From a virus (taxonomy: Duplodnaviria > Heunggongvirae > Uroviricota > Caudoviricetes): 56,408 bases of DNA. The notes below the pieces were generated by a model. It had not been told where the DNA came from, did no database searches, and worked only from the letters and a program-made list of their open reading frames with translations. The stretch lies in the IMG/VR virus record IMGVR_UViG_3300026549_002476. One strand, given 5' to 3'. Below, piece by piece: positions 1-41,234 of this stretch; within the stretch, counting starts at the first letter, position 1, and the number at the start of each line of letters is the position of its first letter. A program made the position numbers and the translations under genes.

Positions 1-708
1 ATGATTTACTTAACTGGGGATATTCATAGACAAGGAACAGTAAGTAGGTTTGAAGGTTTAACAATGTTACATAATGTTAAACCAGAAGACTACTTAATTA
101 TCTGTGGGGATGTAGGGTGTCTTTGGTATGGACATCCAAAAGATGATGAATTACTAGCTGAATATGATAAAATTCCATATAAAATCCTTTGGGTGGATGG
201 AAATCATGAAAATTTCGATTTAATGAAACAATATCCTCATGAAACATGGCATGGTGGAGATATACAGGTTATAAGTAAAAATTCTTATAGATTATGCCGT
301 GGACAGGTATTTAATATAGATGGATATAAGGTCTTCACATTTGGTGGAGGTTTAAGCATAGATAGATACAGAAGAGTTGAACATGAATCTTGGTGGGCTG
401 ATGAATGGCCATCTGAAGAAGAAAAAGAGACAGCATTTAAAAATCTTGAAGCTAATAACTGGAAAGTTGACTATGTTGTGACTCATGCAGCACCAAGAGA
501 AATTAGAAATAGGCTTATTTACTATTCAGTTCCACTAATAATGAGAGATTGTAAGACAGAAGATTTTCTAGAAGAAGTATATGCAAGGTTGGAGTTCAAA
601 CATTGGTTCTTTGGCCATTATCACAAAAATATGAACATTGGTGATAAGTTTACAATGTTGTACGATGGATATACTTCTATCAATAATCCTCAGCATATAG
701 AATATTAA
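1..708 (+). CDS. Calcineurin-like metallophosphoesterase
   Basis: Motifs in order: GDIH, GD(VG), GNHEN, THAAP, FGHYH. The ORF begins MIYLTGDIH, a typical family N-terminus, so it is probably complete. Confidence 0.9.
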   Translation: MIYLTGDIHRQGTVSRFEGLTMLHNVKPEDYLIICGDVGCLWYGHPKDDELLAEYDKIPYKILWVDGNHENFDLMKQYPHETWHGGDIQVISKNSYRLCRGQVFNIDGYKVFTFGGGLSIDRYRRVEHESWWADEWPSEEEKETAFKNLEANNWKVDYVVTHAAPREIRNRLIYYSVPLIMRDCKTEDFLEEVYARLEFKHWFFGHYHKNMNIGDKFTMLYDGYTSINNPQHIEY

Positions 709-721
709 ATTAAATTAGAAC

Positions 722-751
722 TTGACAAAAGGTATAAAAATGTGTTATATT
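722..751 (+). promoter_or_regulatory. sigma-A/sigma70-like promoter
   Basis: TTGACA (722-727), 18-bp spacer, extended -10 TG-n-TATATT (743-751), upstream of ORF 791. Confidence 0.65.
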
Positions 752-790
752 ATATACAAAATAAGATTTGACAAACTGAGGTAATTTATT

Positions 791-1675
791 ATGAAGTACT
801 TAAGAATAAAAGTTAACAATGCTGTCAAGGTTTTAAACCTTGTTAAACAATTTATAATTGTCCCAAGTAGTATTGACCTTGAGGGTAAAGATAAATATAA
901 TTATGAAGTAACCAAGAGAAACTTAATTACTATTAGTGAGCCTGTAAGTAAAAATACATACATAGAAATGCTCAATGGAGTTAAGAAAAGACTTGGAATA
1001 GACTCAAGTGTTACACATGGACATTGCAATTATAAAATATATGCCTTTGGAACAGATAAAGACATAATAGATAAAGAGTTTGGAAGTAGAGTTTATTTTG
1101 AGGATAAACATAAAAAAGATAAACATAAAAAAGAAGATAAGATTAGCAGTGTATTAAATATTGAACGACCAAAGGTAGAAATTAAAACATTTGCAGAGAT
1201 TGAAGAAGAGGATAGGCAAAGAGCTGGTAATGTTAAATCAAAGGCATTTGTAAAATTAATTGCACCATATAAATATGCATTAGAAGATAAGAAAAATGAA
1301 GGTTCGATAAGCAGTGAAGTTAAGACAGTAGATAAAGCACCTGAACAAACTGAAGTTAAGACAGAAAGTAAACCAAAGAAAAAGGCAAATAAAAGAACCT
1401 TAGCAGTCTTAGATGATACAGATACAGATAAGAAAGAAACAAACACAGCAGTTAAAGTTAAAACACCAAATAATAAAACAAAAGCAGTTAAAAAGAGAGC
1501 TTCAACTAGTAAAAATACCAAGAAAAATGATTCAGTCAAAAATAATTTTGTAACTGCATTAAATTTTTTGATCTGTAAATACTCTGAATTAGGTGATGAA
1601 GATGCAGTTAGAAAGCAGAATGTACTTAATGAAATAAAGAAAGATATAGAAGATAAACATATAGAAGTGGAGTAA
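791..1675 (+). CDS. Hypothetical protein with Lys/Thr-rich, probably disordered C-terminal half
   Basis: 294-aa ORF after a GAGG RBS. Contains a 15-bp duplication (DKHKK x2, 1103-1132). No family recognised. Confidence 0.75.
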   Translation: MKYLRIKVNNAVKVLNLVKQFIIVPSSIDLEGKDKYNYEVTKRNLITISEPVSKNTYIEMLNGVKKRLGIDSSVTHGHCNYKIYAFGTDKDIIDKEFGSRVYFEDKHKKDKHKKEDKISSVLNIERPKVEIKTFAEIEEEDRQRAGNVKSKAFVKLIAPYKYALEDKKNEGSISSEVKTVDKAPEQTEVKTESKPKKKANKRTLAVLDDTDTDKKETNTAVKVKTPNNKTKAVKKRASTSKNTKKNDSVKNNFVTALNFLICKYSELGDEDAVRKQNVLNEIKKDIEDKHIEVE

Positions 1676-1677
1676 TT

Positions 1678-1878
1678 ATGAAATTAGAAACTTTTATAAA
1701 GGCAGCACCAAAAGTAGCTAACTTAAGAATTAAAGATGTACGGAGTGATGTGTATATAGGAACAGTGTCTGGGTTTATGGGTTCTATTGAAGAAAAAAAC
1801 TATGGTAAGTGGACAGTAAACTCTTGCAATTATTATCCAAATCAAATGCTTTACATTATAAGCATTATGGAAGGATAA
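1678..1878 (+). CDS. Small hypothetical protein
   Basis: 66-aa ORF, GGAG RBS, directly after the stop of ORF 791. Confidence 0.65.
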   Translation: MKLETFIKAAPKVANLRIKDVRSDVYIGTVSGFMGSIEEKNYGKWTVNSCNYYPNQMLYIISIMEG

Positions 1879-1886
1879 TTTATTAT

Positions 1887-2024
1887 GATTCATGTGGACA
1901 ACAATCTGTGAATCTTACAGCAATTAATTTAAATTGGGTCCTGTTTCAGGAAGTGTCACTGTATGAGTGGTTCATACAGTGACACAAATAGGGTCAGACT
2001 TATTGTATTAAGTCTGACCCTATT
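1887..2024 (+). repeat. Cluster of hairpins containing a copy of the ACAGCAA motif (candidate structured RNA or terminator)
   Basis: GATTCA(1887)/TGAATC(1909-1914) stem. Perfect 14-bp IR 1953-1966/1972-1985. Perfect 16-bp IR 1987-2002/2009-2024. Confidence 0.6.
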
Positions 2025-2102
2025 ATTATAACTAAGTTGACATAAGAATATAAATAGATATATTTTAATTTAAAAATTAGTTAGAGAAATGAGGATGCAA
2101 AC

Positions 2103-2255
2103 ATGAGTAATGATGTTGATAATCTTGAAGTTGAAGTTGTTAAATCTCCTAGAAAGAAGAGACGTGAAATAGCCATTAGTACAGCAATTGTAATTGCTTT
2201 TGTGGCTTCAGTAACCACTGGTTTGGCTGTGTGGTATGCAAAAGAAAAGTGCTAA
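2103..2255 (+). CDS. Small single-pass membrane protein (not in the ORF track)
   Basis: MSNDVDNLEVEVVKSPRKKRREIAISTAIVIAFVASVTTGLAVWYAKEKC, with a GAGGA RBS at 2091-2095. A basic patch precedes one hydrophobic helix. Confidence 0.65.
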   Translation: MSNDVDNLEVEVVKSPRKKRREIAISTAIVIAFVASVTTGLAVWYAKEKC

Positions 2256-2299
2256 TCGCTGGTGGATTAAAATTTTTTTGAAAAATATTTAAAATGGGG

Positions 2300-2328
2300 T
2301 TGATTTAGGATTTAGGATGTGATATAGT
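2300..2328 (+). promoter_or_regulatory. sigma-A-like promoter with extended -10 for the DUF2828 gene
   Basis: TTGATT (2300-2305), 17-bp spacer, TG-n-TATAGT (2320-2328). Implies a ~205-nt 5' leader. Confidence 0.65.
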
Positions 2329-2333
2329 ATTGA

Positions 2334-2526
2334 TGTTGAGAGATGAAGTCGCGAGCAGATCTCAGCAGAATAGATTGGTTGTGATGCTAACAGCAATAAC
2401 TATTATAAAATTTTAGGATAAAAACAAATTTTATGCATCATGTGGCCAAAAATTAAATAGACATCCCTGTGATACTTACAGCAATAAATTAAAACAAATT
2501 TTGGAATGTTTGATTATGTATCATGT
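2334..2526 (+). ncRNA. Candidate cis-regulatory structured RNA leader with two tandem covarying units
   Basis: Hairpin 2334-2341/2360-2367. Unit 1: GTGATGC(2381)-TAACAGCAATAA...GCATCAT(2435). Unit 2: GTGATAC(2469)-TTACAGCAATAA...GTATCAT(2518). A compensatory G-C to A-T change is seen between the units. Confidence 0.55.
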
Positions 2527-2540
2527 AAAGGAGAAAAATT

Positions 2541-4049
2541 ATGAGTAAGCTTAGTGAAGCTATCGACAACGAGGCAAAGTGGACAAAGACTCAGAACGGT
2601 GCAGATGCACTTAATACGACTGGTTCACAATGCCTCAATTTTTTTGCAACAAGTGGTGCTTTGAGAGATGTTCCTGAGGTTCAGAAGAACCAGTTATTTG
2701 GGGCTGCATATTCAGAGAATCCTGATTGGGCAATGAAGTTATTGTTTTATACTCGTGACTTCAGAGAAAACCATGGATATGGTGAAAGAAAGACTTTCAC
2801 TGATATTTTGCATAACCTTGCAAAGGTTCATCCGGAATCAGTCAGAAAGAACCTTTGGGCTATAATGGAATTTGGGTATGCAAAAGATTTGTACTGTCTA
2901 ATTGATACTCCAGTAGAGAATGACATGTGGGATTTTATGAAGTCTCAGTTTGAACTTGATTATCAAAACATGATGGAAGGTAAGAACATCAGTTTGCTTG
3001 CAAAGTGGATTGCAACTCCTGATGCATCTTCTGATAATACTAAGGCACTTGGTAAGTTAACTGCTAAAAAGCTGGGATATAATTATAAGACTTTGCGTTA
3101 TTACAAGCAAAAGTTGCGTAAACTTAGAAAGTATCTCAATTTACCTGAAATCAAGATGGCAGCTAACAAGTGGGGTGAGATTGAATATGCTAATTGTGCT
3201 TCTCATGCAATTATGAAGCATGGTAGTGCATTTGCAAGACATGACACTGATAGATGGAATGAATATCTTGAAAGTGTAAACAATGGTAATACAAAGATTA
3301 ACGCTGATGTTCTTATGCCAGTAGAAGTATTGGTGAAAGAACTTAGGAGCCAAAGCAGCGATATTCAGCTTTGTGAAACACTTTGGAAAAATCTTCCAAA
3401 CATTGTAGCTGATAATGAAAATGTACTTGTTATGGCAGATACTTCTGGTTCTATGACGTGGACTAATGGAAATCATGTTCCACCGATTGCTGTTGCATGC
3501 GCACTTGCAATTTATTTCTCTGAACGTCTGAAAGGGGATTTAAAGAATAGGTTTATGACCTTTAGCAGTAATCCGCACTTTGTACACATTGCTGGTGGTA
3601 CTTTGACAGATAAATATCTGCAGATTGCAAATCATACTGACTGGGGATGTTCTACTGATCTTAAAGCAGCCTTTGACAAGCTTTTGAAAGTTGCCATCAA
3701 TTCTCATATGGAGTCAGCTGATATGCCAAAGGCTATTATGGTTATATCTGACATGCAGATTGATGAGTCTGTTGATGAATATGATAATCATTCTGGCAAA
3801 GTGACATTTACAGATGAGATCAGAAAGGAATACAATGACAATGGATATGAACTTCCACAGATCATTTACTGGAATGTAAATGCTAGCACTCCTGTATTTC
3901 ATGCATCTATGAATGATAATGGTGTAGCACTTGTATCTGGGTATTCAGTGAATGTGTTTAAGCAGGTTATGGAGTCCATTGGACAGACACCTATGGATGT
4001 AATGATGAAAGTCATTAATGATCCTAGATATAGTGAGATCACTGCATAA
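2541..4049 (+). CDS. DUF2828-family TROVE-like / von Willebrand A domain protein (Ro60-related)
   Basis: N-terminal TQNGA..LNFFATSGALR, KLLFYTRDFR...GYGER, LLAKW. C-terminal vWA MIDAS motifs ADTSGSM, T(DL), ISDMQ, IIYWNV, LVSGYS. Confidence 0.85.
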   Translation: MSKLSEAIDNEAKWTKTQNGADALNTTGSQCLNFFATSGALRDVPEVQKNQLFGAAYSENPDWAMKLLFYTRDFRENHGYGERKTFTDILHNLAKVHPESVRKNLWAIMEFGYAKDLYCLIDTPVENDMWDFMKSQFELDYQNMMEGKNISLLAKWIATPDASSDNTKALGKLTAKKLGYNYKTLRYYKQKLRKLRKYLNLPEIKMAANKWGEIEYANCASHAIMKHGSAFARHDTDRWNEYLESVNNGNTKINADVLMPVEVLVKELRSQSSDIQLCETLWKNLPNIVADNENVLVMADTSGSMTWTNGNHVPPIAVACALAIYFSERLKGDLKNRFMTFSSNPHFVHIAGGTLTDKYLQIANHTDWGCSTDLKAAFDKLLKVAINSHMESADMPKAIMVISDMQIDESVDEYDNHSGKVTFTDEIRKEYNDNGYELPQIIYWNVNASTPVFHASMNDNGVALVSGYSVNVFKQVMESIGQTPMDVMMKVINDPRYSEITA

Positions 4050-4061
4050 GGTGTAAAAACC

Positions 4062-4097
4062 AATAGCCAGAGCTTAATATAAGCTCTGGCTATTTTT
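4062..4097 (+). terminator. Intrinsic terminator
   Basis: 15-bp perfect IR (4062-4076/4080-4094) followed by Ts, just after the DUF2828 stop. Confidence 0.8.
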
Positions 4098-4116
4098 AGT
4101 ATACAAAGGAGATATT

Positions 4117-4701
4117 ATGATAATTTTTATTATTGGGCCGAGCAACTCTGGAAAAACAACATTAGCGGATAAAATTGTTAGTGAACTTAAATATAAGAAG
4201 ATTATTACATATACAACTAGAGATAAAAGACATAAAGAAATAGATGGTGCAGATTATCATTTTGTAGATGACAAATGGTTTAATAAGCATAGAAATATAT
4301 TTCTTGAATATACAGAGTATAATAATTGTAATTATGGAAGTTTAATTAAGGATTACCAAGATAATAGGGTAGTTGTTACAACACCAAGTGCTATTGAAGC
4401 ATATAATAAGGCAATAGACTCTGGGATCATTGAATATAACGGAAGTGTTGTGATATATTTAAATACTTCTGAAAAGGAACGTATTGCAAGAGCTATAGTA
4501 AGACATGATGATCTAGATGCATTTAAGAAAAGACTTATAGAAGACAAAGAAACTTTTAAAGAATACATTGAGAAATCTGGCAATAACAAGTTTTTGATTG
4601 AATTAGAGCCACTGAATTTGTCAGATGATAACAGTAAATTGATGAATAAACTTACTGAATTTGCTAGGGAGTGCACAAATGATATTTATTCTAGATACTG
4701 A
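4117..4701 (+). CDS. gmk: Guanylate kinase-like protein
   Basis: P-loop GPSNSGKTT, followed by ITYTTRDKRHKEIDGADYHFV and EYTEY..CNYG (GK signature region). Confidence 0.8.
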   Translation: MIIFIIGPSNSGKTTLADKIVSELKYKKIITYTTRDKRHKEIDGADYHFVDDKWFNKHRNIFLEYTEYNNCNYGSLIKDYQDNRVVVTTPSAIEAYNKAIDSGIIEYNGSVVIYLNTSEKERIARAIVRHDDLDAFKKRLIEDKETFKEYIEKSGNNKFLIELEPLNLSDDNSKLMNKLTEFARECTNDIYSRY

Positions 4702-4762
4702 AAATAGAAATGGCATTATGTTTACTAACAGAAGGTTTGGAAAGTCATTAGATAAAAATTAA
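4679..4762 (+). pseudogene. Truncated fragment resembling the N-terminus of a small conserved Firmicutes protein
   Basis: MIFILDTENRNGIMFTNRRFGKSLDKN* with a GGGAG RBS. Resembles the recalled pattern 'I.C.DD.NGM.FN.RRQS.D' but stops after 27 aa. Confidence 0.35.
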
Positions 4763-4829
4763 CATATAAATTGGCCTCGAATAAAAATATAAATAGTTTA
4801 TATTTTTATATATAAAGAGGGAAAATAGC

Positions 4830-6410
4830 ATGAAAAAGAAACAATTGTTAGCAGCTTTATTAAGTATATCAATGGCCTTTTCACTTGTTGGATGCAGCTT
4901 CTCATTTGGCAATATTCCAGATTTTGCTAGTCATAAAGATGAAGAGAGCAAGTCATCTGATGAAGATGAAAGCAGTGAGAAGTCCAAAGATGACAAAGAA
5001 GATCTTACTGTTAGTGATCTGACAGAAAAAGCTATTGACACTATCAATGATTCAGAGATCATGTCTAGTCATTATGAAGCTAATATGCGACTTAAGATTG
5101 ACGTTGCTGACGAATCTATGGGCATGAATTATAAGATGGATACTGACATTGCTATTGATAATGATAGCAATGGCAAAATGGAAGGATCAATATCTAATTC
5201 TGGGTATGGTTTTGATGAAGGGAACATGAACTTTATAGTTTATGTTGAGTCAGATACAGATGGTTGTACCACATATACTTCTGGAGATAATGGGAATAAT
5301 TGGGTAGTAACTAATAGTGATTCAAACACTATTCAGAAGGATTGTGGAGCAGTTAAAATGCTAGAGGCTATTGATCCTGATGCTGAAATTAAAAAGACAG
5401 AAGATGGCTATGTAATTGAAGCTGATTTACCCAGTGATGCTGTGATAGATGCTACTTCACTTACATCAGATACAGAAAGTACAGTTGATTTCTCATCTGC
5501 AGCTGAGACAAAAGTGCCTGCAACATTCACATTTAATGAGGATTATGAGTTATCTGGGTTTAACATTGATATGTCAGATATGCTAAAGTCTATTGTTGAA
5601 GGCAGTTATAATTCTGAAGATATTAAGACACTTGAAGACGCAGGACAGTCAATAGAATTAGAAACAGAGATGAATATTAAATTAGCAGACATTAAATATG
5701 ATGAGTATGATGCTAATGAAATTAAAGTTCCTGCTGACGTAAAGAAGAGTGCAGTATCAACAGATGATACAGACCTTTATCAGTCAATCGAAGGCACTGA
5801 AGAACACAGCAGTCCAGATAAAGAATATAGCAGTCCAGATAAAGAATATAGCAGTCCAGATAAAGAATATAGCAGTTCAGATAAAGAATATAGCAGTCCA
5901 GATAAAGAATATAGCAGTCCAGATAAAGATACTGACAAGGCTTCTGCATCAGCATTAAAAGAGCTCTTGAAGTTTTCATTTAATGGACATGATATTTCTC
6001 TCCCAGCATCACTTAGCGATTTTAAAGGATATGAAGTTGATCCATCAGATGAACAAACATTAGCTGCTGGGAACTCAACAGTTATATCTATTGAGAATGA
6101 TGATAATTACATTGTTGTCACTGCTAGGAATACAACAGATTCAACAAAAGACATTAAGGATTGTGACATAACTTCTGTAGATATCTCAGAATATGGTAAT
6201 GAAGGATCTGAGTTCACAATTAAAGGTTTAAAGTTTGGTGATTCTATTGATAATGTAAAACAGGTATTTGGAGAGCCATCTGAGGATTACAATGGTACAG
6301 ACGGATACTATTCAATGACATACAATGACGATGATGAAATCAGTAATATTGAATTTTATTTTAGTAATGATAAACTTATAGAAGTAAGCATGACCTATTG
6401 GCCAGATTAA
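4830..6410 (+). CDS. Acidic lipoprotein with LolA-like/DUF6612-like N-region, SSPDKEY repeats and a shared C-terminal domain
   Basis: Signal peptide with lipobox LVGC. The C-terminal domain (FSFNGHDISLPASL...GLKFGDSIDNVKQVFGEP) is paralogous to ORFs 6493 and 50623. Confidence 0.75.
   Translation: MKKKQLLAALLSISMAFSLVGCSFSFGNIPDFASHKDEESKSSDEDESSEKSKDDKEDLTVSDLTEKAIDTINDSEIMSSHYEANMRLKIDVADESMGMNYKMDTDIAIDNDSNGKMEGSISNSGYGFDEGNMNFIVYVESDTDGCTTYTSGDNGNNWVVTNSDSNTIQKDCGAVKMLEAIDPDAEIKKTEDGYVIEADLPSDAVIDATSLTSDTESTVDFSSAAETKVPATFTFNEDYELSGFNIDMSDMLKSIVEGSYNSEDIKTLEDAGQSIELETEMNIKLADIKYDEYDANEIKVPADVKKSAVSTDDTDLYQSIEGTEEHSSPDKEYSSPDKEYSSPDKEYSSSDKEYSSPDKEYSSPDKDTDKASASALKELLKFSFNGHDISLPASLSDFKGYEVDPSDEQTLAAGNSTVISIENDDNYIVVTARNTTDSTKDIKDCDITSVDISEYGNEGSEFTIKGLKFGDSIDNVKQVFGEPSEDYNGTDGYYSMTYNDDDEISNIEFYFSNDKLIEVSMTYWPD
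5808..5930 (+). repeat. In-frame 21-bp tandem repeat (~5.9 copies)
   Basis: Unit AGCAGTCCAGATAAAGAATAT, encoding SSPDKEY. Copy 4 has one substitution. Confidence 0.95.
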
Positions 6411-6428
6411 TAAATATAGGTGTCCATT

Positions 6429-6470
6429 ATACATAAGTGAGTTAAGCATAAACAACTCACTTATGTATTT
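6429..6470 (+). terminator. Intrinsic terminator-like 15-bp inverted repeat
   Basis: ATACATAAGTGAGTT (6429-6443) / AACTCACTTATGTAT (6454-6468). Confidence 0.7.
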
Positions 6471-6492
6471 ACTTAGAAAGGATAGAATGGGT

Positions 6493-7281
6493 ATGAAGAA
6501 TAAGTTGGTTACAATTTTAATTGCAGGTTTAACTATTATAAGTGTGAGTGGTTGCAGTCTTAATTTAAAAGATGCTGGTGGGCCAGTATCAAAGCCTATT
6601 GAACAGATGACTAATTCTGAAAAAGATAGTTATGATACCAGTACAAGTGAATCAGATACCAGTACAAGTGAATCAGATACCAGTACAAGTGAATCAGATA
6701 CCAGTACAAGTGAATCAGATACTAATAAACTGATAGCCACTGGAGAATATTCAGATGTAGCTAAAAGTACTGAGTTTACACTAGATGGCAAGACAATAAC
6801 ACTTCCTGCTTCTGTATCAGACTTTGATGGTTTTAAGATTGATGATGAATCCGACACAACTACCTTAGGACACCTGGAAAGCAGGTCAGTTTTACTTAAA
6901 AATGACAGTGGAAAATCTATTTATATAAACATTATTAATGATTCAGATACTAAGCAGGTACAGGATATAGAAGACTGTACAGTGGTTGGGGTTGTTTTTA
7001 TTACAGACCTTGGGATTGATGAACTAGACGTAGAATATAACGGAATTACTCTCGGGGAATCTATTTATGATGTTGTAGATAAATTTGGAGAACCAACTAA
7101 AGTTTTTGATGGTTACAATGATTATAAAGCAATGAACTATGATCGTGGATATATTACATATGTATATCATTATGAGGATCCTTCAAATTGGATTCATTCA
7201 TATGATAATGAACTTAGCCTTGATATTGACAATGGCATAATTACTAGAATTGAATTAGAGACAGGTAATATTTATAAATGA
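6493..7281 (+). CDS. Lipoprotein with DTSTSES repeats, paralogous to ORF 4830 (start revised from 6463)
   Basis: MKNKLVTILIAGLTIISVSGC lipobox. Contains FTLDGKTITLPASVSDF...GITLGESIYDVVDKFGEP. The track start at 6463 lies inside the terminator hairpin. Confidence 0.75.
   Translation: MKNKLVTILIAGLTIISVSGCSLNLKDAGGPVSKPIEQMTNSEKDSYDTSTSESDTSTSESDTSTSESDTSTSESDTNKLIATGEYSDVAKSTEFTLDGKTITLPASVSDFDGFKIDDESDTTTLGHLESRSVLLKNDSGKSIYINIINDSDTKQVQDIEDCTVVGVVFITDLGIDELDVEYNGITLGESIYDVVDKFGEPTKVFDGYNDYKAMNYDRGYITYVYHYEDPSNWIHSYDNELSLDIDNGIITRIELETGNIYK
6634..6723 (+). repeat. In-frame 21-bp tandem repeat (4 perfect copies plus a partial one)
   Basis: Unit GATACCAGTACAAGTGAATCA, encoding DTSTSES. Confidence 0.95.
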
Positions 7282-7304
7282 CAAAGATTTAGCAGTGATA
7301 AGAC

Positions 7305-7439
7305 ATGAAAAAGAAGTTTCATACACATGATTGCATGAGTATTAAGAAAATAAAAGACAGTAATAAAGAAACATTTACAGGTTCAAGAGATACTTTGATG
7401 AGTGAAGGTTATGAACCTTACAGAGTTTGTAAGTCATAA
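7305..7439 (+). pseudogene. Degenerate Ada-metal-binding-like domain fragment (not in the ORF track)
   Basis: MKKKFHTHDCMSIKKIKDSNKETFTGSRDTLMSEGYEPYRVCKS matches the 'KKFH..C..VK......GSR..L...GY.PC..C' pattern, but one Cys is Tyr and no good RBS is present. Confidence 0.5.
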
Positions 7440-7493
7440 ATAGCCTGTAAAGAAATTAAAAGAACAGTTTAAAAATGACAAGGGGTATTAGTT

Positions 7494-10400
7494 ATGAAGG
7501 TTAGGGATCGAGTTAAAAAATTTTTTAGCTATCTAATGCTTAGCACTATGATTTTAAATCAACTTGTTCCAGTAAACGCCGCTGAGACTAATGGTGATCT
7601 ACAAAGTAGCCAAGTCACAGTTGATGTAAGAGTGGATTGGGTTGATGATGCTTGGAAGGATTCAGATGATAACAGTACAAATCGTCCTGACAGCATTAAT
7701 ATTCACATACACAATGGCGATGATACTATTGATGCAGAAGTAAAGGCATCTGATAACTGGACATACACCACAACAGTAGATAGTGATAATGGTTTAAGCA
7801 TAGATGAGGATGTTCCGGATCAGTACGAGTATAGTGGATACACAACAGAAAAGACTGATACTGGAATTTTATTTGTTTTAAATAATGCATTTATTCCAAA
7901 GACAACAAGTGTTACAGTATCAAAAACTTGGGATGATGAAGATCATCCAAAACAGCTAATCATAACTCTTGCAGGTTCAGACGGAAGCACTTATGATTAT
8001 ACACTAAGTGACGATGCCGGTTGGTCACATACATTTGAGAATCTTCCATATTGGAAAGATGGCCAAGTCATTGAGTACACATCAAAAGAATCTCTTACAG
8101 ACGATGAGAAAGATAAGTGGGTACTTGAAGATGGTGAATGGACTTCTTCAGAATCCAAAGAAGTTGAAGAGCATAATCCAAATATGAATTATGTTACTAT
8201 TAAAGGTACAAAGACTTGGGTTGATGATGATGAAGCAAATCGTCCATTAAGTATAACAGTTGATCTGTATGCAAATAATGAACCAGCTAAGGATGCTGCT
8301 GGGAATGAAATTAAACAGACAATATCAGCAGACAATGGTTGGTCTTATAAGTTTGCAGGACTTAATGAAACAGATGATAATGGAGTAATCAATTATACAG
8401 TAAGAGAAGATTCAACTCCAGATAATTACATTGTAAAGTATGATGGGTATAATATAATTAACATATATAAAGATGCAACTATTTCAATATCTGGTAAAAA
8501 AACTTGGGATGATAACAATGATCAAGATGGTAAGAGACCAGAAAGCACAAAAGTTTATGTAGTTGACTCTGAAGGTAATCAGGTTGGTGATAAGAAAACT
8601 ATTACAGCTAATGATGATTGGAGTTATACATTTGAAAATCTTCCAAAGTATAATGATAATGGTGACGAGATTAAGTATTCAATAGCTGAAGACAATATAG
8701 ATGGCTATACTACAGAGATTTCTGATTATAATATAACTAATAAGCATACACCAAGTACTTTAACAGTAACAGTTAATAAAACTTGGGATGATTCAAGCAA
8801 TGCAGATGATAGTAGACCTGAAAAAATAAATTTTGATTTGTATGCTGACACTGAAAAGATTGATACACAGACATTTGATGTTGATAGAACTTCTGACATT
8901 AGTATATATACATTTAAAGATGAAGATGGGGCAGCAAAGAATTATCCGGTTTACAAAGATGGTACAAAGATAAATTATAGCATTAAAGAAGAAGACACTG
9001 GTGGATATACTTCTACCATAGAAAAATCTGATCAATCAACAGAAAATAATATTATTTATGATGTAAATAATAAGCATGGAGTTGAGACAGTTAAAGTATG
9101 TGGTAAAAAGGTATGGGTTGATGGAAATAACACTGATGAAAAGAGACCAACAACTGTTACAATTAATCTTTTAAGAGATGGTACCAAGATTTCTTCTGTT
9201 AAAGTAGGTAGTGACAATACATTTGATTTTGGTGAGCTTCCTGCAAATTATGCAGGCAAGAAGGCAACATATAGCATCACTGAAAATGATATTGATAATT
9301 ATAAGTCTGCAATAGTTAAAAATGATGATGGTACATATACAGTTACAAATACTTATGTAGAGCCATTAAAAGTTAAGAAAGTCTGGGATGACGTTAGTAA
9401 TAAGGATGGTAAGAGACCAGACAGCATTGAGTTTAGGCTGTCAGTAAATAATGTAATTGGTGATAAGACTTACACAATGTCTAAACCAGATATTGAATTA
9501 GCTGGAAACAATAGCTGGGGAACCATTACACTTAAAGATGATGATAACAAGATAGAGTATTTCCCTGTATATGATACTGATGGAAATAAGATAGAGTATA
9601 GTGTAAAAGAAACAAATATAGATGGTTATAAAGCTATTGTAAATACTGAGGGTAATGTTATAACAATTAGAAATCAACATGAAACATCTGATGGAACAGT
9701 AAAAATTAGAAAGATTTGGAATGATTGTGATAATCATTGTAATTCTAGACCTAATAGCATAGAAATCCAAGCTTATACCTCTTCTGATGATTCTGAAAAA
9801 TATGGTGATCCAGTAAAAATAACAAAAGCAGAATTAGTTGACAAAAATGTTTGGGAGTATACATTTAATCTTAATAATGAAAATGATGTAATTAATCATT
9901 TTAAAGAAATTGAAGTTCCAAAGTATTATGATGTTGAGTATACTGGTTGGGATGATGATCATAAGGTATATACAATAACAGATAATATAAATCCTAGTAA
10001 GGTTCCGATATATGTAAGAAAATATTGGAATACAGATGAAAAATATGAACCAAGAAAAAAGGATGATGCATCTGATGAATTAAAAGCTACTAATGATTCA
10101 GTCACAATAGAATTCGACTACAGAAAAGATGCAGATTCTGAATATAAACATTATTCATATAAATTAACACCTGATACAAATTGGACTAGACTTGTAGGCA
10201 CAGATGAAGTTCAGATAGTTTGTAAGGATGGACAGCCATATATTGATGTAGCAAATATCAAAGAAGCTGAAGAAGACATTCTTAAGAAAGCTGGGTATAA
10301 GATTACTACATATACATCTTGTGATTTAAAGCAAGGTGCAGAAGGCGGTGGATTTTATATTACTGTTGAGAATAAGTATAAAGAAACAGTAGATATTAAT

Positions 10401-13400
10401 GTTAAGAAGATTTATAAATCTGTTGGAAGTACTTGTCCAACAGCAACATTTACATTAACTGCTGATGATAAGGTTGTAGATTCTTTTGTATATACAGGTT
10501 CTGATAATCGTAGTTATACATTTAAAGATCTTCCAAAATATAATGCAAATGGTAAAGAAATAGTATATGATGTAAATGAGAGCTGTGTAGATATAGCATC
10601 AACAATGATTAACAACACTGGTAAATTACAGAGTACATATACAACTTATAAAGAACGCAATGGAAACACATTCACATTTAAAAATATACAGAATTGCTGG
10701 TTGCAATTTCAAAAAGTGTTTGCAGCTCGTTATACAGTAGATAAGCCAACTGCTGTAGTATTTACAGTATATCATTATGATAATGGCAGTAAGAAGGTAG
10801 ATGGTAATGTAACAATTAATACTTCTGGAAATGGCCATGTATTTTATAATAAAGATCATTTGTTGAATCTACCAACTTTTGATAAGGATTTGAATCCTAT
10901 AATTTATTATGTATCAGAACAGCCAGTTAATAAGTGGTACTTAGATGGTTCTAATCCTTCAGATTCTGGTCAGTATATTGTACTAGGGTCTTTGGGGGGC
11001 CTGAGCAGATACATAAGTCTAGAAAATGGTTCTAATGTATGTGATGGAACAGGTTACCAATTAACAGTATATAAAGTTTGGGATGATGATCATAATGTTG
11101 TTGGAACAAGACCAGAAAGTATGAACGTTAATTATAAATATAAAGACTTATATTATGATGGCTATAAGAATTATGAAGATAAAGTATATAAAAGAAATGT
11201 ATATAGAAATAGTACATATAGTTCAGATGTTGAAGCTGTAAAATATCATTTTGATGTAAATGTTGATGCATCAGACCTTTGGGTATATAATGGTGGCTTT
11301 GGGGCTTCAACAAATTATCTCATGATACCAGATGTAAATGAGGAAGTTCCAGATGGATATATATTAGATAAAAAAATGTATAGAGTACAATTTAGCCCAA
11401 GATCTACATTCAGAGGTTCTAATGGTAATTATTATTATCAGGGTACATATTATGAAGACATTAATATAGCTCAAGAAGCTATAAATGCTGGTATAGGGTT
11501 AGGTTACGTGAGAGTAGAATGTCTGTTAATTAATAAACCAATTAAAAATTCTACTCATGTACACATTAGTAAATCTTGGAATACTGACAATAAAAATAAG
11601 ATACCAGAGAGTATAGGAGTTTCATTTATTGATTCAGATGGAAATATTAAAAAGCATATTGTATTAAGCAAAGACAGTAATTTTGCATATGACTTTTATA
11701 CTAGTAATGAAGATTATAACAAATATAAGAGTTATAATATCATAGAAGATTCTAATAATGATGGCATAGAAGATAAGCCTGATGGATTTAAATATGTAAC
11801 TTATCATCTAGAAGATGATCCAGATAAAAGCTCATATAATACAAAGCATGATTTATATTATTCTATAATTAACAGTGATACAAAAGCAGAAATTACAGAT
11901 ATAAGAGTTACAGTAAACAAAACTTGGGATGATGATAACAATAGAGATGGTTATAGACCAAAGAAGTTTAAAGTTAGTTTACAGGATTTGGATGGACATT
12001 CAATAGCTTCTAGTTATGATTATGGAGTAAAAGATGCTTCATATAACTTACATGTTAACTCATCAAAAAGTGGTTTCAATGTCGTAGAGGATTATGATAC
12101 ATCTGATAAGTATACAACAACAAAGAATATCAAAGCTAATAAAGATGCTGATGGAAATATAACTAGCTATACAGTTGATCTTAAGAATACTCACATACCA
12201 GAAAAAATTGATATTCATGTAGTTAAGCACTGGTCAGATAAAGATATCATTAAGACAAATAAAGAGTCAAAGACAGTTCGCTTGTATGCAGATGGTAAGT
12301 ATGTTAAAGATGGAAAGTTCACATACTATGAAGAGACTGGCGAGTGGGCAGTAGATTTCAATGATCTTTATAAATATCAAGATGGAAAGAAGATCAATTA
12401 CACTGTTGTTGAAGATGGTGCAAGTCATGTAAACAAGACCTTAACCAAGACGATTGTTAATCATAAGACTATTACATTCCCTGTTAAGAAGGAATGGATT
12501 GATGATAGCAATGTAGGTTTGATAAGACCTACATCAGTCACAGTTGGTTTGTTTAGAGAGGATCAAGAAAATCCGATAGCAACAGTAGAACTTAGTGATA
12601 CAAACAATTGGGAATATGAGTTTACTAAGGATTCTTCTGGAAATGCTCTTCTGAAGTATGATAACGGTACTAAAATTAAATATTATGCAAGGGAGTTGGA
12701 TTCTAAAGGTAAGCCGATTGAAGATGGTGCAATAAATGAAAGGTACAAAACAACTTATTCAGAAGATTCTAAGGTAATCACTAACAGTCTTGTTGGAAAT
12801 ATCAAAGTAACCAAGGTTTGGGATGATAATAATGATGAAAATAAGGAAAGACCTACATCAGTAAATATCAATCTTAAATCTGGTAATGATACAGTAGATA
12901 GCATTAAACTGAATAGTGATAACTGGTCTGGAGAGTTTAAGAATATTCCAATAGTTGATGAAAATAATAAATTGATTAAGTATACTGTTACAGAAGATGC
13001 TTTGAGCAATAGCAAGTATGAGTTGAAACAAACTACCGGTGATTCAATCAATGGATTTACTGTTGAAAACGGATATAAAGTTATTAAAGAAGACATATCC
13101 GGTGAAAAGACTTGGGATGATTTTGATGACTATGATAAGATAAGGCCGTCAGAAATTACAATTTACTTGTATAAAGTAGCCAGTGATTCAAAGATTGAAG
13201 TTGCACATCAGGTGGTTAAACCAAACAAAGATGGAAAGTGGCTGTATGATTTTGGTGAACAACCAGTATATGAAAATGGTAAAGAAATAACCTATAAGAT
13301 TGAAGATAGTGTAGATGGTTATGAATGTCATGCATCTAAAGGTTATGATATAGTTAATAAGCATACACCAGAGCACAAAGATACAAATATTAATAATAAA

Positions 13401-14681
13401 GTTACAGTAATTAAGATTGATGAAGATAATAATGTAATAACAAGCAAAGCTCAGTTTGGTTTATATGAAGATAAAGATTGTAACAACAAGATTTATGAGT
13501 TTGGTACTGAAAATGGTAAGTTTAATATCAGTACAGATGAACCAGTATTATTAAAGTATTTGCCAGAGTCAGAAGGTAAAGAAAATACACTTTATCTAAA
13601 AGAGATTGTAGCGCCTAAAGGATATGATATTAATAGTACAGTATTTGAAGTCAAACTTGGTATTAGCAAAGACACAACAGATAAGTTTAATACAAAACTG
13701 AATCATCTGATTACAATTAATGGTTCTAGTGAGCTAAGAGTTGTTGATAATAAACATATTGAACCAACAAAGCCTGCAACAAAGCCTGCAACAAATAATT
13801 CTACTGAACAAGCAAAGCCTGCAACAAATGATAGTAATGACAATGCATCTTATGCTTATTATACACCATCAGTTACGAAGACCGTGAATGGTTTAAAGCC
13901 TGGAGCTAATAAGTTTACATTTGTATTAACTGATAACTCTGGTAAGGAACTTGACAGAGTAACTAATGATGAAAATGGCATAGTAAAGTTTAAGACCATT
14001 ACTTATAGCAATTACAATGTAGGATCTAAATATATCTATAAGATTCATGAGATTATTCCAGATGGAACGAATGGATATGACAATCATACATATGTAATAA
14101 ATGTAACACCTAAGTGGTCTGATTCTGGTACATTTATGATTGAGACATCAACAGATGGTTATTCTAATTTCAATAATGTAATTCAGATTGATCCACAGTT
14201 CAAGTCAGTAACTGTTCAGAAGATTTGGAATGACAATAATGACCAGTATAAACAGAGACCTGAGGCAGTAAAAGTCCAGTTGTATGCAAATGGTCAACCT
14301 TGTGGTGATACGATTTATCTGAATGATGATAATAATTGGCAGTTTACATGGCCAAGCATTCCAAGCAATGATCTTGTTGGAACACCTTATAATTACACAG
14401 TAGCTGAGATTGATATACCTAAATATTATGATTCAGACGTAACTGGTGATGCAACAAGTGGATTTGTAGTAACTAATATATTTGATACTGATACTTATTT
14501 GATGAGCAACGAGAGTAATAATACAGATAACCCAAATGGTTCAGGTACAAATGATAATACAATTAACTTGAATGATTCAGATACTGGCGATAGTTCAAAA
14601 CTTGTAGATGAAACAATAATATTAATTGTAGCTCTTGCAGCTCTTGCATGTGTCCTATTTTATAAACGCAAGCATAAATAA
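7494..14681 (+). CDS. Giant Cna B-type repeat surface adhesin with SpaA-like and FctA-like domains and a sortase-type C-terminus
   Basis: Signal peptide and many 'K.W.D..N.DG.RP..I.V.L' repeats. SpaA-like IKIDED..A.FGLY..LKEIVAPKGY. FctA-like KFTFVL..TNDENGIVKF. Ends DSDTGD + hydrophobic helix + KRKHK. Confidence 0.85.
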   Translation: MKVRDRVKKFFSYLMLSTMILNQLVPVNAAETNGDLQSSQVTVDVRVDWVDDAWKDSDDNSTNRPDSINIHIHNGDDTIDAEVKASDNWTYTTTVDSDNGLSIDEDVPDQYEYSGYTTEKTDTGILFVLNNAFIPKTTSVTVSKTWDDEDHPKQLIITLAGSDGSTYDYTLSDDAGWSHTFENLPYWKDGQVIEYTSKESLTDDEKDKWVLEDGEWTSSESKEVEEHNPNMNYVTIKGTKTWVDDDEANRPLSITVDLYANNEPAKDAAGNEIKQTISADNGWSYKFAGLNETDDNGVINYTVREDSTPDNYIVKYDGYNIINIYKDATISISGKKTWDDNNDQDGKRPESTKVYVVDSEGNQVGDKKTITANDDWSYTFENLPKYNDNGDEIKYSIAEDNIDGYTTEISDYNITNKHTPSTLTVTVNKTWDDSSNADDSRPEKINFDLYADTEKIDTQTFDVDRTSDISIYTFKDEDGAAKNYPVYKDGTKINYSIKEEDTGGYTSTIEKSDQSTENNIIYDVNNKHGVETVKVCGKKVWVDGNNTDEKRPTTVTINLLRDGTKISSVKVGSDNTFDFGELPANYAGKKATYSITENDIDNYKSAIVKNDDGTYTVTNTYVEPLKVKKVWDDVSNKDGKRPDSIEFRLSVNNVIGDKTYTMSKPDIELAGNNSWGTITLKDDDNKIEYFPVYDTDGNKIEYSVKETNIDGYKAIVNTEGNVITIRNQHETSDGTVKIRKIWNDCDNHCNSRPNSIEIQAYTSSDDSEKYGDPVKITKAELVDKNVWEYTFNLNNENDVINHFKEIEVPKYYDVEYTGWDDDHKVYTITDNINPSKVPIYVRKYWNTDEKYEPRKKDDASDELKATNDSVTIEFDYRKDADSEYKHYSYKLTPDTNWTRLVGTDEVQIVCKDGQPYIDVANIKEAEEDILKKAGYKITTYTSCDLKQGAEGGGFYITVENKYKETVDINVKKIYKSVGSTCPTATFTLTADDKVVDSFVYTGSDNRSYTFKDLPKYNANGKEIVYDVNESCVDIASTMINNTGKLQSTYTTYKERNGNTFTFKNIQNCWLQFQKVFAARYTVDKPTAVVFTVYHYDNGSKKVDGNVTINTSGNGHVFYNKDHLLNLPTFDKDLNPIIYYVSEQPVNKWYLDGSNPSDSGQYIVLGSLGGLSRYISLENGSNVCDGTGYQLTVYKVWDDDHNVVGTRPESMNVNYKYKDLYYDGYKNYEDKVYKRNVYRNSTYSSDVEAVKYHFDVNVDASDLWVYNGGFGASTNYLMIPDVNEEVPDGYILDKKMYRVQFSPRSTFRGSNGNYYYQGTYYEDINIAQEAINAGIGLGYVRVECLLINKPIKNSTHVHISKSWNTDNKNKIPESIGVSFIDSDGNIKKHIVLSKDSNFAYDFYTSNEDYNKYKSYNIIEDSNNDGIEDKPDGFKYVTYHLEDDPDKSSYNTKHDLYYSIINSDTKAEITDIRVTVNKTWDDDNNRDGYRPKKFKVSLQDLDGHSIASSYDYGVKDASYNLHVNSSKSGFNVVEDYDTSDKYTTTKNIKANKDADGNITSYTVDLKNTHIPEKIDIHVVKHWSDKDIIKTNKESKTVRLYADGKYVKDGKFTYYEETGEWAVDFNDLYKYQDGKKINYTVVEDGASHVNKTLTKTIVNHKTITFPVKKEWIDDSNVGLIRPTSVTVGLFREDQENPIATVELSDTNNWEYEFTKDSSGNALLKYDNGTKIKYYARELDSKGKPIEDGAINERYKTTYSEDSKVITNSLVGNIKVTKVWDDNNDENKERPTSVNINLKSGNDTVDSIKLNSDNWSGEFKNIPIVDENNKLIKYTVTEDALSNSKYELKQTTGDSINGFTVENGYKVIKEDISGEKTWDDFDDYDKIRPSEITIYLYKVASDSKIEVAHQVVKPNKDGKWLYDFGEQPVYENGKEITYKIEDSVDGYECHASKGYDIVNKHTPEHKDTNINNKVTVIKIDEDNNVITSKAQFGLYEDKDCNNKIYEFGTENGKFNISTDEPVLLKYLPESEGKENTLYLKEIVAPKGYDINSTVFEVKLGISKDTTDKFNTKLNHLITINGSSELRVVDNKHIEPTKPATKPATNNSTEQAKPATNDSNDNASYAYYTPSVTKTVNGLKPGANKFTFVLTDNSGKELDRVTNDENGIVKFKTITYSNYNVGSKYIYKIHEIIPDGTNGYDNHTYVINVTPKWSDSGTFMIETSTDGYSNFNNVIQIDPQFKSVTVQKIWNDNNDQYKQRPEAVKVQLYANGQPCGDTIYLNDDNNWQFTWPSIPSNDLVGTPYNYTVAEIDIPKYYDSDVTGDATSGFVVTNIFDTDTYLMSNESNNTDNPNGSGTNDNTINLNDSDTGDSSKLVDETIILIVALAALACVLFYKRKHK

Positions 14682-15977: not shown

Positions 15978-17288
15978 ATGCAAGCACATGCGAATAAAGC
16001 AATCAAAAATAACAATAAAATCATTGGTTATGAAATTACAGATGGTAAGAGTACAATGAGCATTAATACTCAAGCTATCTTAAATGTTATGAAAGCTGGA
16101 AAGATTACTTTTGATAACTTGCATATTGATGCTAGTGGAACTAACCTTGTAATGGATATACCAGAAGATCAGAAGAAGTTAACTGACGAACTTAATAAAG
16201 CCAGAGAGGTTTATGAGCAAGGTACAGACGAGATAATGCCAAACAGAGAGTATGATGCTAAATATGATCAGCTCAAAGAAATGGAAAAGAAGTCTGGTAT
16301 CATTGCAAAAGATAGTCCTACAGTTAATGTTGGTTATTCAACTTCTGGATCTAAGCTTCAGAAATACACATTTAAAACACCAATGTTAAGCCTTGAAAAA
16401 ACAAAATCAGTTGATGATCTTAAAACTTTCATTGGAAATCAGAATTGTGTTTTATCAACTAAAATGGATGGTTTAACTGTCGTTCTTCAATATATGAATG
16501 GACAGTTGTACAGAGCAATCACTCGTGGAAATGGTGAAGTTGGAGAAATCGTTACAGAAAATGCCAAGAGATTTGTGAATGTGCCACAGAAGATCAATTA
16601 CACTGGCAAGATGGTTCTTCGCGGTGAAGCTGTTATTAAGTACAGTGACTTTGAAAAGTTAAATGTAGACGGAGCTTATAAGAATCCTCGTAACTTATGT
16701 AGTGGTTCTGTAAGACAGTTGGATCCGAATGTTACAGCAAGTAGAAAAGTAAATTGGTTTTGTTTTGATCTGGTAGAAGCTGATGGGATGCCAAGTAGCA
16801 TAACTTATCATCAACAGTTGGATTTCTTAAAGAGCCTAGGGTTTAGTGTTGTTCCGCATACCTTTGTAAATGCATCAACAGTAGATCAGCAAGTGATAAA
16901 TTTTACTACACTCGTTAAAGCAGACGATATTCCTGCTGACGGATTGGTTATAAAGTATGACAATATAGCATATGGACTTGGACTTGGTAGGACAGCTAAA
17001 GCTCCTAAATATGCAATTGCATTTAAGTGGGAAGATGGACTTAAGGAATCTGAGTTAATAGATATAGTTTGGCAGGTTGGACGTACTGGAAAAATTACAC
17101 CAGTAGCAGTATTCAAGCCAGTAGAAATTGAAGGAAGTATCGTTCAGAGAGCAAGCTTACATAATTTAAGTATGTTGAATGAAATACTTGGACAGCCATA
17201 TGTTGGTGAGAAAGTTTATATATACAAAGCCAACATGATAATTCCTCAGATAGCACAAGCTGATAGAAAGGCAGACTTAAGATTTTAA
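15978..17288 (+). CDS. ligA: NAD-dependent DNA ligase, N-terminal half (extra N-terminal domain + Ia + adenylation + OB fold)
   Basis: EYD..YD.L (Ia), KMDG (adenylation Lys), AITRGNG.VGE.VT, RGE, NPRN..GSVRQLD, DGLVIK, AIAFK, WQVGRTGKITPVA, ASLHN, KANMIIPQI. Stops before the Zn finger. Confidence 0.92.
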   Translation: MQAHANKAIKNNNKIIGYEITDGKSTMSINTQAILNVMKAGKITFDNLHIDASGTNLVMDIPEDQKKLTDELNKAREVYEQGTDEIMPNREYDAKYDQLKEMEKKSGIIAKDSPTVNVGYSTSGSKLQKYTFKTPMLSLEKTKSVDDLKTFIGNQNCVLSTKMDGLTVVLQYMNGQLYRAITRGNGEVGEIVTENAKRFVNVPQKINYTGKMVLRGEAVIKYSDFEKLNVDGAYKNPRNLCSGSVRQLDPNVTASRKVNWFCFDLVEADGMPSSITYHQQLDFLKSLGFSVVPHTFVNASTVDQQVINFTTLVKADDIPADGLVIKYDNIAYGLGLGRTAKAPKYAIAFKWEDGLKESELIDIVWQVGRTGKITPVAVFKPVEIEGSIVQRASLHNLSMLNEILGQPYVGEKVYIYKANMIIPQIAQADRKADLRF

Positions 17289-40847: not shown

Positions 40848-41234
40848 ATGACAATTACAATTAAGCGAGATACAAGATGGAATAAGAAAGTTAAAGTTGG
40901 TATGATTCATGGACGATATCCATATAAAATGTACCTTGAAGTTGAAGGAAACAGTAAGATAGGTAATTATATCGTGGTTGTAGGAAATGAACCACTAGGA
41001 AATGGACTGGTAAACTCTGTAATTATCCAAACAACTGATGATACTGTTGAAGATACTGATAAAAATTTTAATAAACCTAATATGATTGGTAAGTATCATA
41101 TTAAATATACTGTGATTGAAGTTAGTCCACTTGATGTACCACTTGATGAGAAGATGATCGTATTTAACAAAGTTAAGGAACGTCAGAAGAGTATTGTAGA
41201 TCTTGTCAAGGAAAGAGAAAGCGGAAATGTTTAA
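40848..41234 (+). CDS. Hypothetical protein (start revised from 40839)
   Basis: GAGGTG RBS precedes the ATG at 40848. Confidence 0.6.
   Translation: MTITIKRDTRWNKKVKVGMIHGRYPYKMYLEVEGNSKIGNYIVVVGNEPLGNGLVNSVIIQTTDDTVEDTDKNFNKPNMIGKYHIKYTVIEVSPLDVPLDEKMIVFNKVKERQKSIVDLVKERESGNV

Follow-up and report, generated by a model that had tools for sequence, protein, structure and literature searches.

The DUF2828 locus and its RNA units

The 56,408-nt stretch of DNA analyzed here (the window) is the IMG/VR record IMGVR_UViG_3300026549_002476 of a Caudoviricetes virus, a phage that is placed in the rumen, and it contains a gene of the DUF2828 family whose leader carries tandem copies of a small RNA motif. 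The gene (2541-4049, + strand, as for the units, promoter and hairpins described below) encodes a protein of 502 aa with a DUF2828 and a DUF7788/von Willebrand factor A (vWA) region (Pfam PF11443, 6.5e-39, and PF25043, 1.6e-41), and the PF11443 match confirms the family assignment given in an earlier note on this DNA. That note had also described two covarying units between a promoter and the start codon, and their coordinates, their spacing to the Shine-Dalgarno (SD) sequence and their ACAGCAA boxes are all borne out by the sequence.

In both leader units, the conserved part, referred to as the handle, consists of a closing helix of 8 bp, in which two terminal pairs are G-U, and a subsequent invariant ACAGCAA. 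In unit 1 (2380-2443), UGUGAUGC (2380-2387) pairs with GCAUCAUG (2435-2442), and the ACAGCAA box at 2390-2396 is followed by an AU-rich, variable insert; the strain variants seen in metatranscriptome run X18 leave the handle itself untouched. Unit 2 (2468-2526) is built from UGUGAUAC (2468-2475) and GUAUCAUG (2518-2525) with the box at 2478-2484, and it ends 2 nt before the SD sequence AAGGAG (2528-2533), which serves the ATG at 2541-2543. The pair G2386-C2436 of unit 1 is replaced by A2474-U2519 in unit 2, as had been noted earlier. Moreover, the terminal G-U and U-G pairs of the two helices can only form in + strand RNA and would be mismatched in DNA or in RNA of the opposite strand. A further segment, AAAACAAAUUUU, that had been counted as part of the motif is not conserved in relatives.

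The window contains a third copy in addition to the two initially recognized. This unit 0 (1887-1923) was found as a pattern match with three mismatches to the 20-nt 5' half of the units, which occurs three times in the window at ≤3 mismatches, compared to 0.10 occurrences expected from shuffled sequences. Here, a 12-nt loop separates the paired strands GAUUCAUG (1887-1894) and UGUGAAUC (1907-1914), and the resulting hairpin is followed by UU-ACAGCAA (box at 1917-1923), so that the order of the helix strands is reversed relative to units 1 and 2 and the unit resembles a permuted form (type B, see below). The hairpin is present in the minimum free energy (MFE) fold, and RNA contigs reaching 1938 or 1992 cover it. 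Unit 0 lies past the stop codon of the upstream open reading frame (ORF), in the 3' region of the upstream transcript and just before the hairpins at 1953-2024. Its 5' half can alternatively pair with GGUUCAUA at 1969-1976 to give the fold of units 1 and 2 (type A); as GGUUCAUA is buried in the 14-bp hairpin 1953-1985, two mutually exclusive folds are possible.

All three units are encoded on the + strand, at distances of 15, 98 and 618 nt from the downstream ATG (2541), with ACAGCAA starting 2 nt past the helix strand in each case. Their helix cores covary (GAUGC/GCAUC, GAUAC/GUAUC and GAAUC/GAUUC). A covariance model of the handle (R1) scores 48.8 bits on unit 1, which is itself a seed member of this model, and yields a match at 1906-1977 that overlaps unit 0 (20 bits, E = 0.011). 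A further match at 41036-41101 on the - strand (16.8 bits) was dismissed as chance, being devoid of the ACAGCAA box and opposite a coding region. None of the Rfam families reached its gathering score on the handles of the window, in agreement with the earlier statement that this is not a named family, and no paper describing the handle RNA was found in the literature.

Forms and covariation of the handle family

Comparison with related loci defines a family of RNAs with a 7-9-bp helix, the sequence of which is free but covarying, and a single-stranded ACAGCAA that follows the 5' strand at a distance of 1-3 nt; the cargo enclosed by this handle is variable. In type A, to which units 1 and 2 belong, the 5' and 3' ends are joined by the helix and flank a variable insert (25-66 nt), which in some cases contains a T arm or a hairpin resembling an anticodon arm. 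Type B, as in unit 0, is a circular permutation, in which a short loop caps the CAUG/GUG end and the helix opens at the ACAGCAA end. In many IMG/VR loci, type B handles reside within a complete tRNA body that carries an extra ~45 nt between D arm and anticodon arm. The Rfam tRNA model scores such bodies, which are 114-130 nt long, at 36-55 bits. Several of them were missed by ARAGORN (alignment A2: L006:2214-2328, L022:1678-1795, L001:1848-1965, L033:2086-2397 and L013:3998-4127); their readable anticodon loops are GUU, GUA, GUG and GUC, plus GAA. The first four of these anticodons make up the queuosine set, and colicin E5 targets this set as well.

For the analysis of covariation, handles were anchored by sequence only in order not to select for pairing, i.e. 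by G[UG]GA-N5-ACAGCAA and by the closest UC[AC]UG downstream of it. Of the 145 variable cells in the 29 distinct handles obtained in this manner, 131 pair, whereas the maximum in 5000 shuffles was 111; position 3 is G-C in 15 and U-A in 14 handles, and position 7 shows five pair types. Likewise, 88.8% of the cells pair in a 27-unit alignment (A3), in contrast to 30-49% with the partner strand slid by 1-3 columns. The covariance model derived from A3 found 15 matches (E ≤ 0.004) in 22 Lachnospiraceae loci outside the seed. All of these are on the strand of the gene, those checked lie upstream of it, and 91.7% of their cells pair. The pairing across homologues thus lies well above both the shuffled and the slid-strand controls, and the earlier proposal of covarying stems, for which a lack of such covariation would have been fatal, holds. 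The G-U pairs, the compensatory changes and the strand bias point to an RNA element rather than to double-stranded DNA, and the handle units are confirmed as real structured RNA modules.

Association of the handle with DUF2828 genes

DUF2828 is a large family with >5000 relatives at E ≤ 1e-10. It is found in 692 cultured-phage records, including Felix O1 and phages of Listeria, Staphylococcus, Mycobacterium and Vibrio, and is also present in plants and other eukaryotes. Positions 1-8000 of the window gave no megablast match to the phage collection. Related loci were retrieved from IMG/VR with a protein alignment (A1), whereas a query with the single DUF2828 protein retrieved none, and a scan of genome contigs with narrow peptide patterns provided two loci only.

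In nearly all of 80 IMG/VR loci, whose proteins are 43-47% identical to that of the window, ACAGCAA is present upstream on the strand of the gene. It occurs 1-8 times within a few hundred bases ahead of the gene, and in this stretch exclusively on the gene's strand. In 20 sampled Lachnospiraceae loci, the box was counted 44 times on the gene's strand and seven times on the opposite one, and it is present in 19 of the 20. In these bacteria, the helix ends read AAAG...CUUG instead of the UGUG...CAUG of the phages, while ACAGCAA is unchanged. Of 301 Lachnospiraceae genomes, 30 carry PF11443. A strict phage-type pattern (GKGAY-N5-ACAGCAA-N-RTCMTG) gave 18 unpaired chance matches in the 301 genomes and none in a DUF2828-positive genome, which is explained by the bacterial handles ending in AAAG...CUUG and not in UGKG...CMUG.

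The linkage was also followed in the reverse direction with a pattern based on the RNA only, which comprised both helix halves and the box and found at least 109 loci in IMG/VR. Among the 110 paired matches listed, 97 are accompanied within the retrieved stretch by a same-strand DUF2828 gene, in most cases 6-470 nt downstream; for seven of the 13 misses, the flanking sequence is too short. A pattern restricted to the 5' half (GTGAYRCTWACAGCAATAA) gave two IMG/VR matches, both of which are chance occurrences in coding DNA. The pairing of handle and gene, which extends over hundreds of phages and bacteria, spans phages of Firmicutes, Proteobacteria and Actinobacteria as well as bacterial genomes.

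The position of the handles relative to the gene varies, and the element is not confined to 5' leaders, as had been assumed, but is also found between tRNA genes, downstream of the gene and in tRNA bodies. In the closest relatives, with proteins 53-56% identical to that of the window, one unit is located at the SD sequence and further units follow in 1-1.5 kb of non-coding DNA downstream. In these relatives (L219:3977-5055, L220:3977-5536 and L221:3977-5505), the stretch directly after the DUF2828 gene has no called genes and is packed with tRNA-like bodies that carry type B handles, where the window has a terminator only. In Felix O1, a tRNA array follows the DUF2828 gene ORF42, and the spacers of this array hold units such as GAAGACCG-UU-UACAGCAA...CGGUCUGG.

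A recurring arrangement is the junction between handle and SD sequence. The final G of the handle lies 13-16 nt from the ATG in 57 of the 80 viral loci (...GUCCUG-AAAGGAG...), and most exceptions have a variant box that was skipped by the search. The window (AUCAUG-U-AAAGGAG), L220, L221, L081 and the bacterial locus L088 share this junction.

One DUF2828 locus on a gut phage contig harbors an RNA of a different kind. Downstream of the gene and adjoining genes for tRNA-Lys and tRNA-Cys, an int-alpA RNA (RF02996; L002:4399-4470) scores 55 bits, above the gathering score of 35.8.

Predicted fold of the DUF2828 protein

The label TROVE/Ro60-like, under which the gene had first been described, stands at the level of fold and fails at that of sequence family. 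In Pfam, the protein has no TROVE (PF05731) match and a sub-threshold match to VWA_2, and a profile search of PDB sequences returned neither Ro60 nor any other solved structure. In PHROG, it belongs to family 850, annotated as 'RNA-binding protein'. By contrast, an AlphaFold2 model built from 25 homologues (predicted local distance difference test score 86.8, predicted template modelling score 0.87) aligns over its full length with Ro60/TROVE structures, which are the top Foldseek matches (E about 1e-7; query template modelling score, TMq, 0.5-0.60). Among them are Ro60 of Xenopus (1yvr and 2i91), a TROVE domain (9kop) and Ro60 of the Thermus phage phiLo (9l5y). A search of Swiss-Prot models likewise placed Ro60 orthologues, Tetrahymena p80 and TEP1 at the top. 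Furthermore, the residues of the metal ion-dependent adhesion site (MIDAS), i.e. D300, S302, S304, T372 and D404, are invariant among the 25 homologues. The protein is hence predicted to consist of a TROVE-like repeat ring and a vWA domain with an intact MIDAS.

Transcription of the leader and the gene

Leader and DUF2828 gene are co-transcribed. A single contig from public bovine-gut metatranscriptomes covers 2344-4054, i.e. the leader plus the gene, and no terminator was found between the leader and the coding sequence (CDS). A consensus scan places a sigma-70-type promoter at 2300-2328 (TTGATT at 2300-2305, a 17-nt spacer and the extended -10 element TG-n-TATAGT at 2320-2328; 9/12 consensus matches plus TG), consistent with the clean promoter ahead of the leader that had been reported. 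RNA contigs from three studies, which are of higher depth here, start at 2344 (run X10) or 2348 (runs X2, X5 and X18), 16-20 nt past the -10 box, and the start in X2 is abutted by an Illumina adapter. As these starts fall inside a hairpin predicted by the MFE fold at the 5' end of the leader (2334-2367), the hairpin may not be part of the stable RNA. At the other end, contigs stop at 4050-4054, just short of an intrinsic terminator-like hairpin (4062-4094; 15-bp stem followed by a T run) that ends the transcript of leader plus gene.

In one metatranscriptome run, a variant strain is represented by a leader-only piece of 187 nt (2348-2534) with an adapter at one end. Its depth of 74 is ~16-fold that of the CDS contigs in this run (4.65). 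Relative to the window, the strain has lost 5 nt at 2404, gained TATAT after 2484 and carries three substitutions at 2425-2429, all of which are within the inserts, so that the handles are unchanged. The metatranscriptomes thus provide a moderate hint that the leader builds up as a separate RNA.

Upstream of the leader, two very stable hairpins (1953-1985 and 1987-2024; fold of 1885-2030: -62 kcal/mol, z = -9.3) end the preceding transcription unit. No RNA contig crosses 1993-2078 in four runs, a region that holds these terminator hairpins and the next promoter, and 4119-4215 is likewise without contig cover. These gaps are a weak hint that the contigs derive from RNA rather than from contaminating DNA. 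A strong promoter-like site (TTGACA, 16-nt spacer, TATATT; 11/12 matches) lies within 2037-2255 and is followed by an ORF of 50 aa (2103-2255), the C-terminal half of which is hydrophobic. Low-depth RNA contigs start at 2079-2090 and run to 2353 in the DUF2828 leader, and some read-through into this leader thus seems to occur.

Relation to Ro60/Y RNA particles and phage operators

Three interpretations had been offered for the element, namely an autoregulatory RNA, a ligand-sensing RNA and a Y-RNA-like partner of the protein. The last of these fits best, as handles also occur away from the leader, in tRNA arrays and tRNA bodies. Like the Ro60 (Rsr)/Y RNA systems, the locus encodes a ring protein with predicted TROVE-like and vWA/MIDAS parts beside small RNAs (PMC4201824; PMC12135203), and a helix formed by the RNA's 5' and 3' ends carries a variable or tRNA-like module, as in YrlA (PMC4201824). 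The pairing of RNA and protein exists in phages and bacteria in both cases, and the predicted fold matches Ro60 structures. A phage-encoded Ro60 is known from Thermus phage phiLo (PMC12135203), and TROVE proteins with tRNA-like partners have been described in jumbo phages by Iyer et al. 2021. The nearest published account is a preprint on phage Bas63 (10.1101/2024.10.10.617714). There, the Ro60-like gp130 of this Felix O1-type phage, which is encoded directly upstream of tRNA genes, is reported to counter the Ppl defence, and some of the 'tRNAs' at this locus are suggested to be Y RNAs.

The differences are nonetheless substantial. The protein of the window belongs to DUF2828/DUF7788 and not, like Ro60, to TROVE PF05731. 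Unlike Y RNAs and YrlA, the handle is also found in circularly permuted form and inserted into complete tRNA bodies between D arm and anticodon arm. In the window, by contrast with Ro60/Y RNA loci, the RNAs form an mRNA leader and abut the SD sequence; moreover, neither a tRNA nor a tRNA-like element was called in the window and the inserts are AU-rich hairpins, whereas relatives display T arms, anticodon arms or entire tRNA bodies on their handles. YrlA scores in related loci are confined to 21-26 bits on tRNA-like parts. On this comparison, the locus probably encodes a variant of a Ro/Y-RNA-type particle that works in a similar manner but stands outside the Ro60/Y RNA family.

A second comparison is offered by the autogenous translational operators of phages, for which T4 RegA and gp32 are examples. 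As in these systems, the candidate recognition site of an RNA-binding protein lies at or next to the SD sequence of its own message. Unlike such operators, the site is here a copy of a module that also exists in the form of free-standing RNAs.

Proposed function and alternative explanations

Based on the above analogies, the units are probably Y-RNA-like partners of the Ro60-like protein and possibly double as an autoregulatory operator. The argument for the former role is that an end-formed helix with an invariant box and a variable or tRNA-like cargo, encoded beside a protein of predicted Ro60 shape, reproduces the anatomy of Ro60/Y RNA. Just as Ro60 attaches to the conserved stem of Y RNAs, the DUF2828 protein probably binds to the handle, which would give rise to a phage ribonucleoprotein. 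Units 1 and 2 are transcribed from the gene's own promoter as its leader, and the partner RNAs could then be released from this leader or kept on it. Negative autoregulation is predicted because unit 2 ends 2 nt from the SD sequence: protein bound to unit 2 would cover the SD sequence and block ribosome entry, so that protein synthesis could be tied to the supply of free handles. With the last handle abutting the SD sequence in many lineages, this part of the original proposal remains plausible. The particle probably acts in RNA or tRNA conflicts or in counter-defence, a role suggested by the loading of tRNA pieces and bodies onto the handle in relatives and by the report on Bas63 gp130.

Several points weigh against this interpretation. 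The link between handle and protein is drawn from gene neighbourhood and from the analogy to Ro60, and none of the features by which Y RNAs are known to bind Ro60 is present in the handle. The YrlA model (RF02553) finds no match in the window, either at its gathering score (69 bits) or at E ≤ 10. Many of the IMG/VR loci are closely related, and the counts given above therefore overstate the number of independent events. The whole leader folds no better than shuffled sequences (z = 0.08), and single units have z values near 0 as well, so that the support for structure is comparative and not thermodynamic. Compactness of the genomes or a site of RNA processing could also account for the proximity to the SD sequence. 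Neither the ends nor the strand or abundance of an RNA can be proven from contigs, and DNA may be present in RNA libraries. Finally, Bas63 gp130 is a presumed Felix O1-type orthologue of the protein, on the basis of the phage genus and the description in the preprint.

If the units were merely binding sites in the mRNA, they would act in cis as an operator or leader element that sets translation or stability, and no separate RNAs would be involved. The 2-nt distance between unit 2 and the SD sequence, which recurs in many lineages, would fit such a function, as would the presence of leader and CDS on one RNA contig with no terminator in between. Yet, handles are also located far from SD sequences, i.e. 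in tRNA spacers, downstream of the gene, in tRNA bodies and, in the window, at 1887-1923 behind another operon, and one run contains the discrete leader-only piece at ~16-fold the depth of the CDS contigs, which makes a purely cis-acting element improbable. It is also unlikely, albeit conceivable, that the handle is recognized by another factor, such as an RNase of host or phage, a tRNA-modifying or repair enzyme or an RNA ligase like RtcB, and that the DUF2828 gene is no more than a neighbour. In this case, the units would act independently of the Ro60-like protein, as signals for processing or stability or as substrates or decoys. The embedding of handles in tRNA arrays and bodies is in line with this, and the circular permutation that relates types A and B looks as if the helix were a nicked or a closed stem-loop. 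Against an unrelated factor, the window has three handles beside the gene although it lacks any tRNA gene, the linkage to DUF2828 holds in both search directions and in phages as well as bacteria, and the loci read revealed no other gene that accompanies the handle.

The position in a 5' leader and the tandem direct repeats containing inverted repeats might also suggest a ligand-sensing riboswitch or a DNA-level repeat that is bound by a protein as double-stranded DNA. For both, the odds are very poor: the interior is hypervariable (25-66 nt), only the closing helix and ACAGCAA are conserved, and no Rfam family matches at its gathering score, while an RNA element is indicated by the G-U pairs, by the compensatory changes and by the strict strand bias. 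With an interior that varies freely and no conserved aptamer core, the ligand-sensing option of the earlier note is thus not upheld.

Should the proposed binding of the handle by the protein hold true, the DUF2828 family would gain a testable job and would represent a second, independent lineage of Ro/Y-RNA-type particles, which in turn would offer a concrete route for studying how Ro-like proteins counter host defences. To this picture, the window adds a minimal, tRNA-free version, in which two units of 60-65 nt and one gene are arranged behind one promoter. It also adds the first hint in public RNA data of the leader accumulating as its own RNA and a case of the conserved junction between handle and SD sequence, from which autoregulation is predicted.

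Resemblance to Dictyostelium Class I RNAs

The type A units share several features with the abundant Class I RNAs of Dictyostelium (RF01414; PMC7919456), i.e. a short stem that joins the 5' and 3' ends, a variable interior and a length of ~60 nt. Directly 3' of the 5' stem half, the Class I consensus reads CCUUACAGCAA and unit 2 reads CUUACAGCAA; for this 11-nt motif, 10/11 bases are identical in unit 2 and 9/11 in unit 1. In addition, C-N-U-G follows the 3' stem half of the handle, and Class I RNAs end with CUGU. RF01414 is the recurring non-tRNA Rfam match on type A units of relatives (20-24.6 bits). In the window, the model gives 14.2 bits (E = 9.7) for unit 2 and no match for unit 1, and the gathering score of 41.5 is nowhere reached.

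Unlike the handles, Class I RNAs are products of eukaryotic genes with a Dictyostelium upstream sequence element (DUSE) promoter about 60 nt upstream, whereas the units in the window are surrounded by a bacterial-type promoter, an SD sequence and phage genes. The one protein shown to bind Class I RNAs directly is CIBP, an RNA recognition motif (RRM) protein, and this RNA class has been reported to be unique to Dictyostelia (PMC7919456); the authors searched eukaryotes and one bacterium, but not phages. Four proteins were pulled down with DdR-21, a Class I RNA, including DDB_G0281243 of unknown function, which is a candidate for a TROVE/DUF2828-type partner. No Dictyostelium protein was among the Swiss-Prot structural matches to the DUF2828 model. 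It is rather doubtful that Class I RNAs are eukaryotic members of the handle family and Y-RNA-like partners of a TROVE/DUF2828-type ring protein. If they were, the handle design may have reached the bacteria-eating amoeba from phages or bacteria, and if the likeness is more than chance, a 20-year-old orphan RNA class would gain a candidate mechanism.

Genomic neighbourhood

The locus is flanked by genes for a calcineurin-like metallophosphoesterase (1-708) and a guanylate-kinase-like P-loop kinase (4117-4701), a pair of activities that could heal RNA ends. All genes of the window are on one strand, and it contains no tRNA gene. Further downstream are an ORF of 2395 aa (7494-14681) and genes for an NAD-dependent ligase (15978-17288), an AAA+ clamp-loader-like protein (31503-33254) and a Dda-like helicase (42915-44177). 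As a whole, the window resembles a part of a large rumen phage genome that is devoted to replication and nucleotide metabolism.

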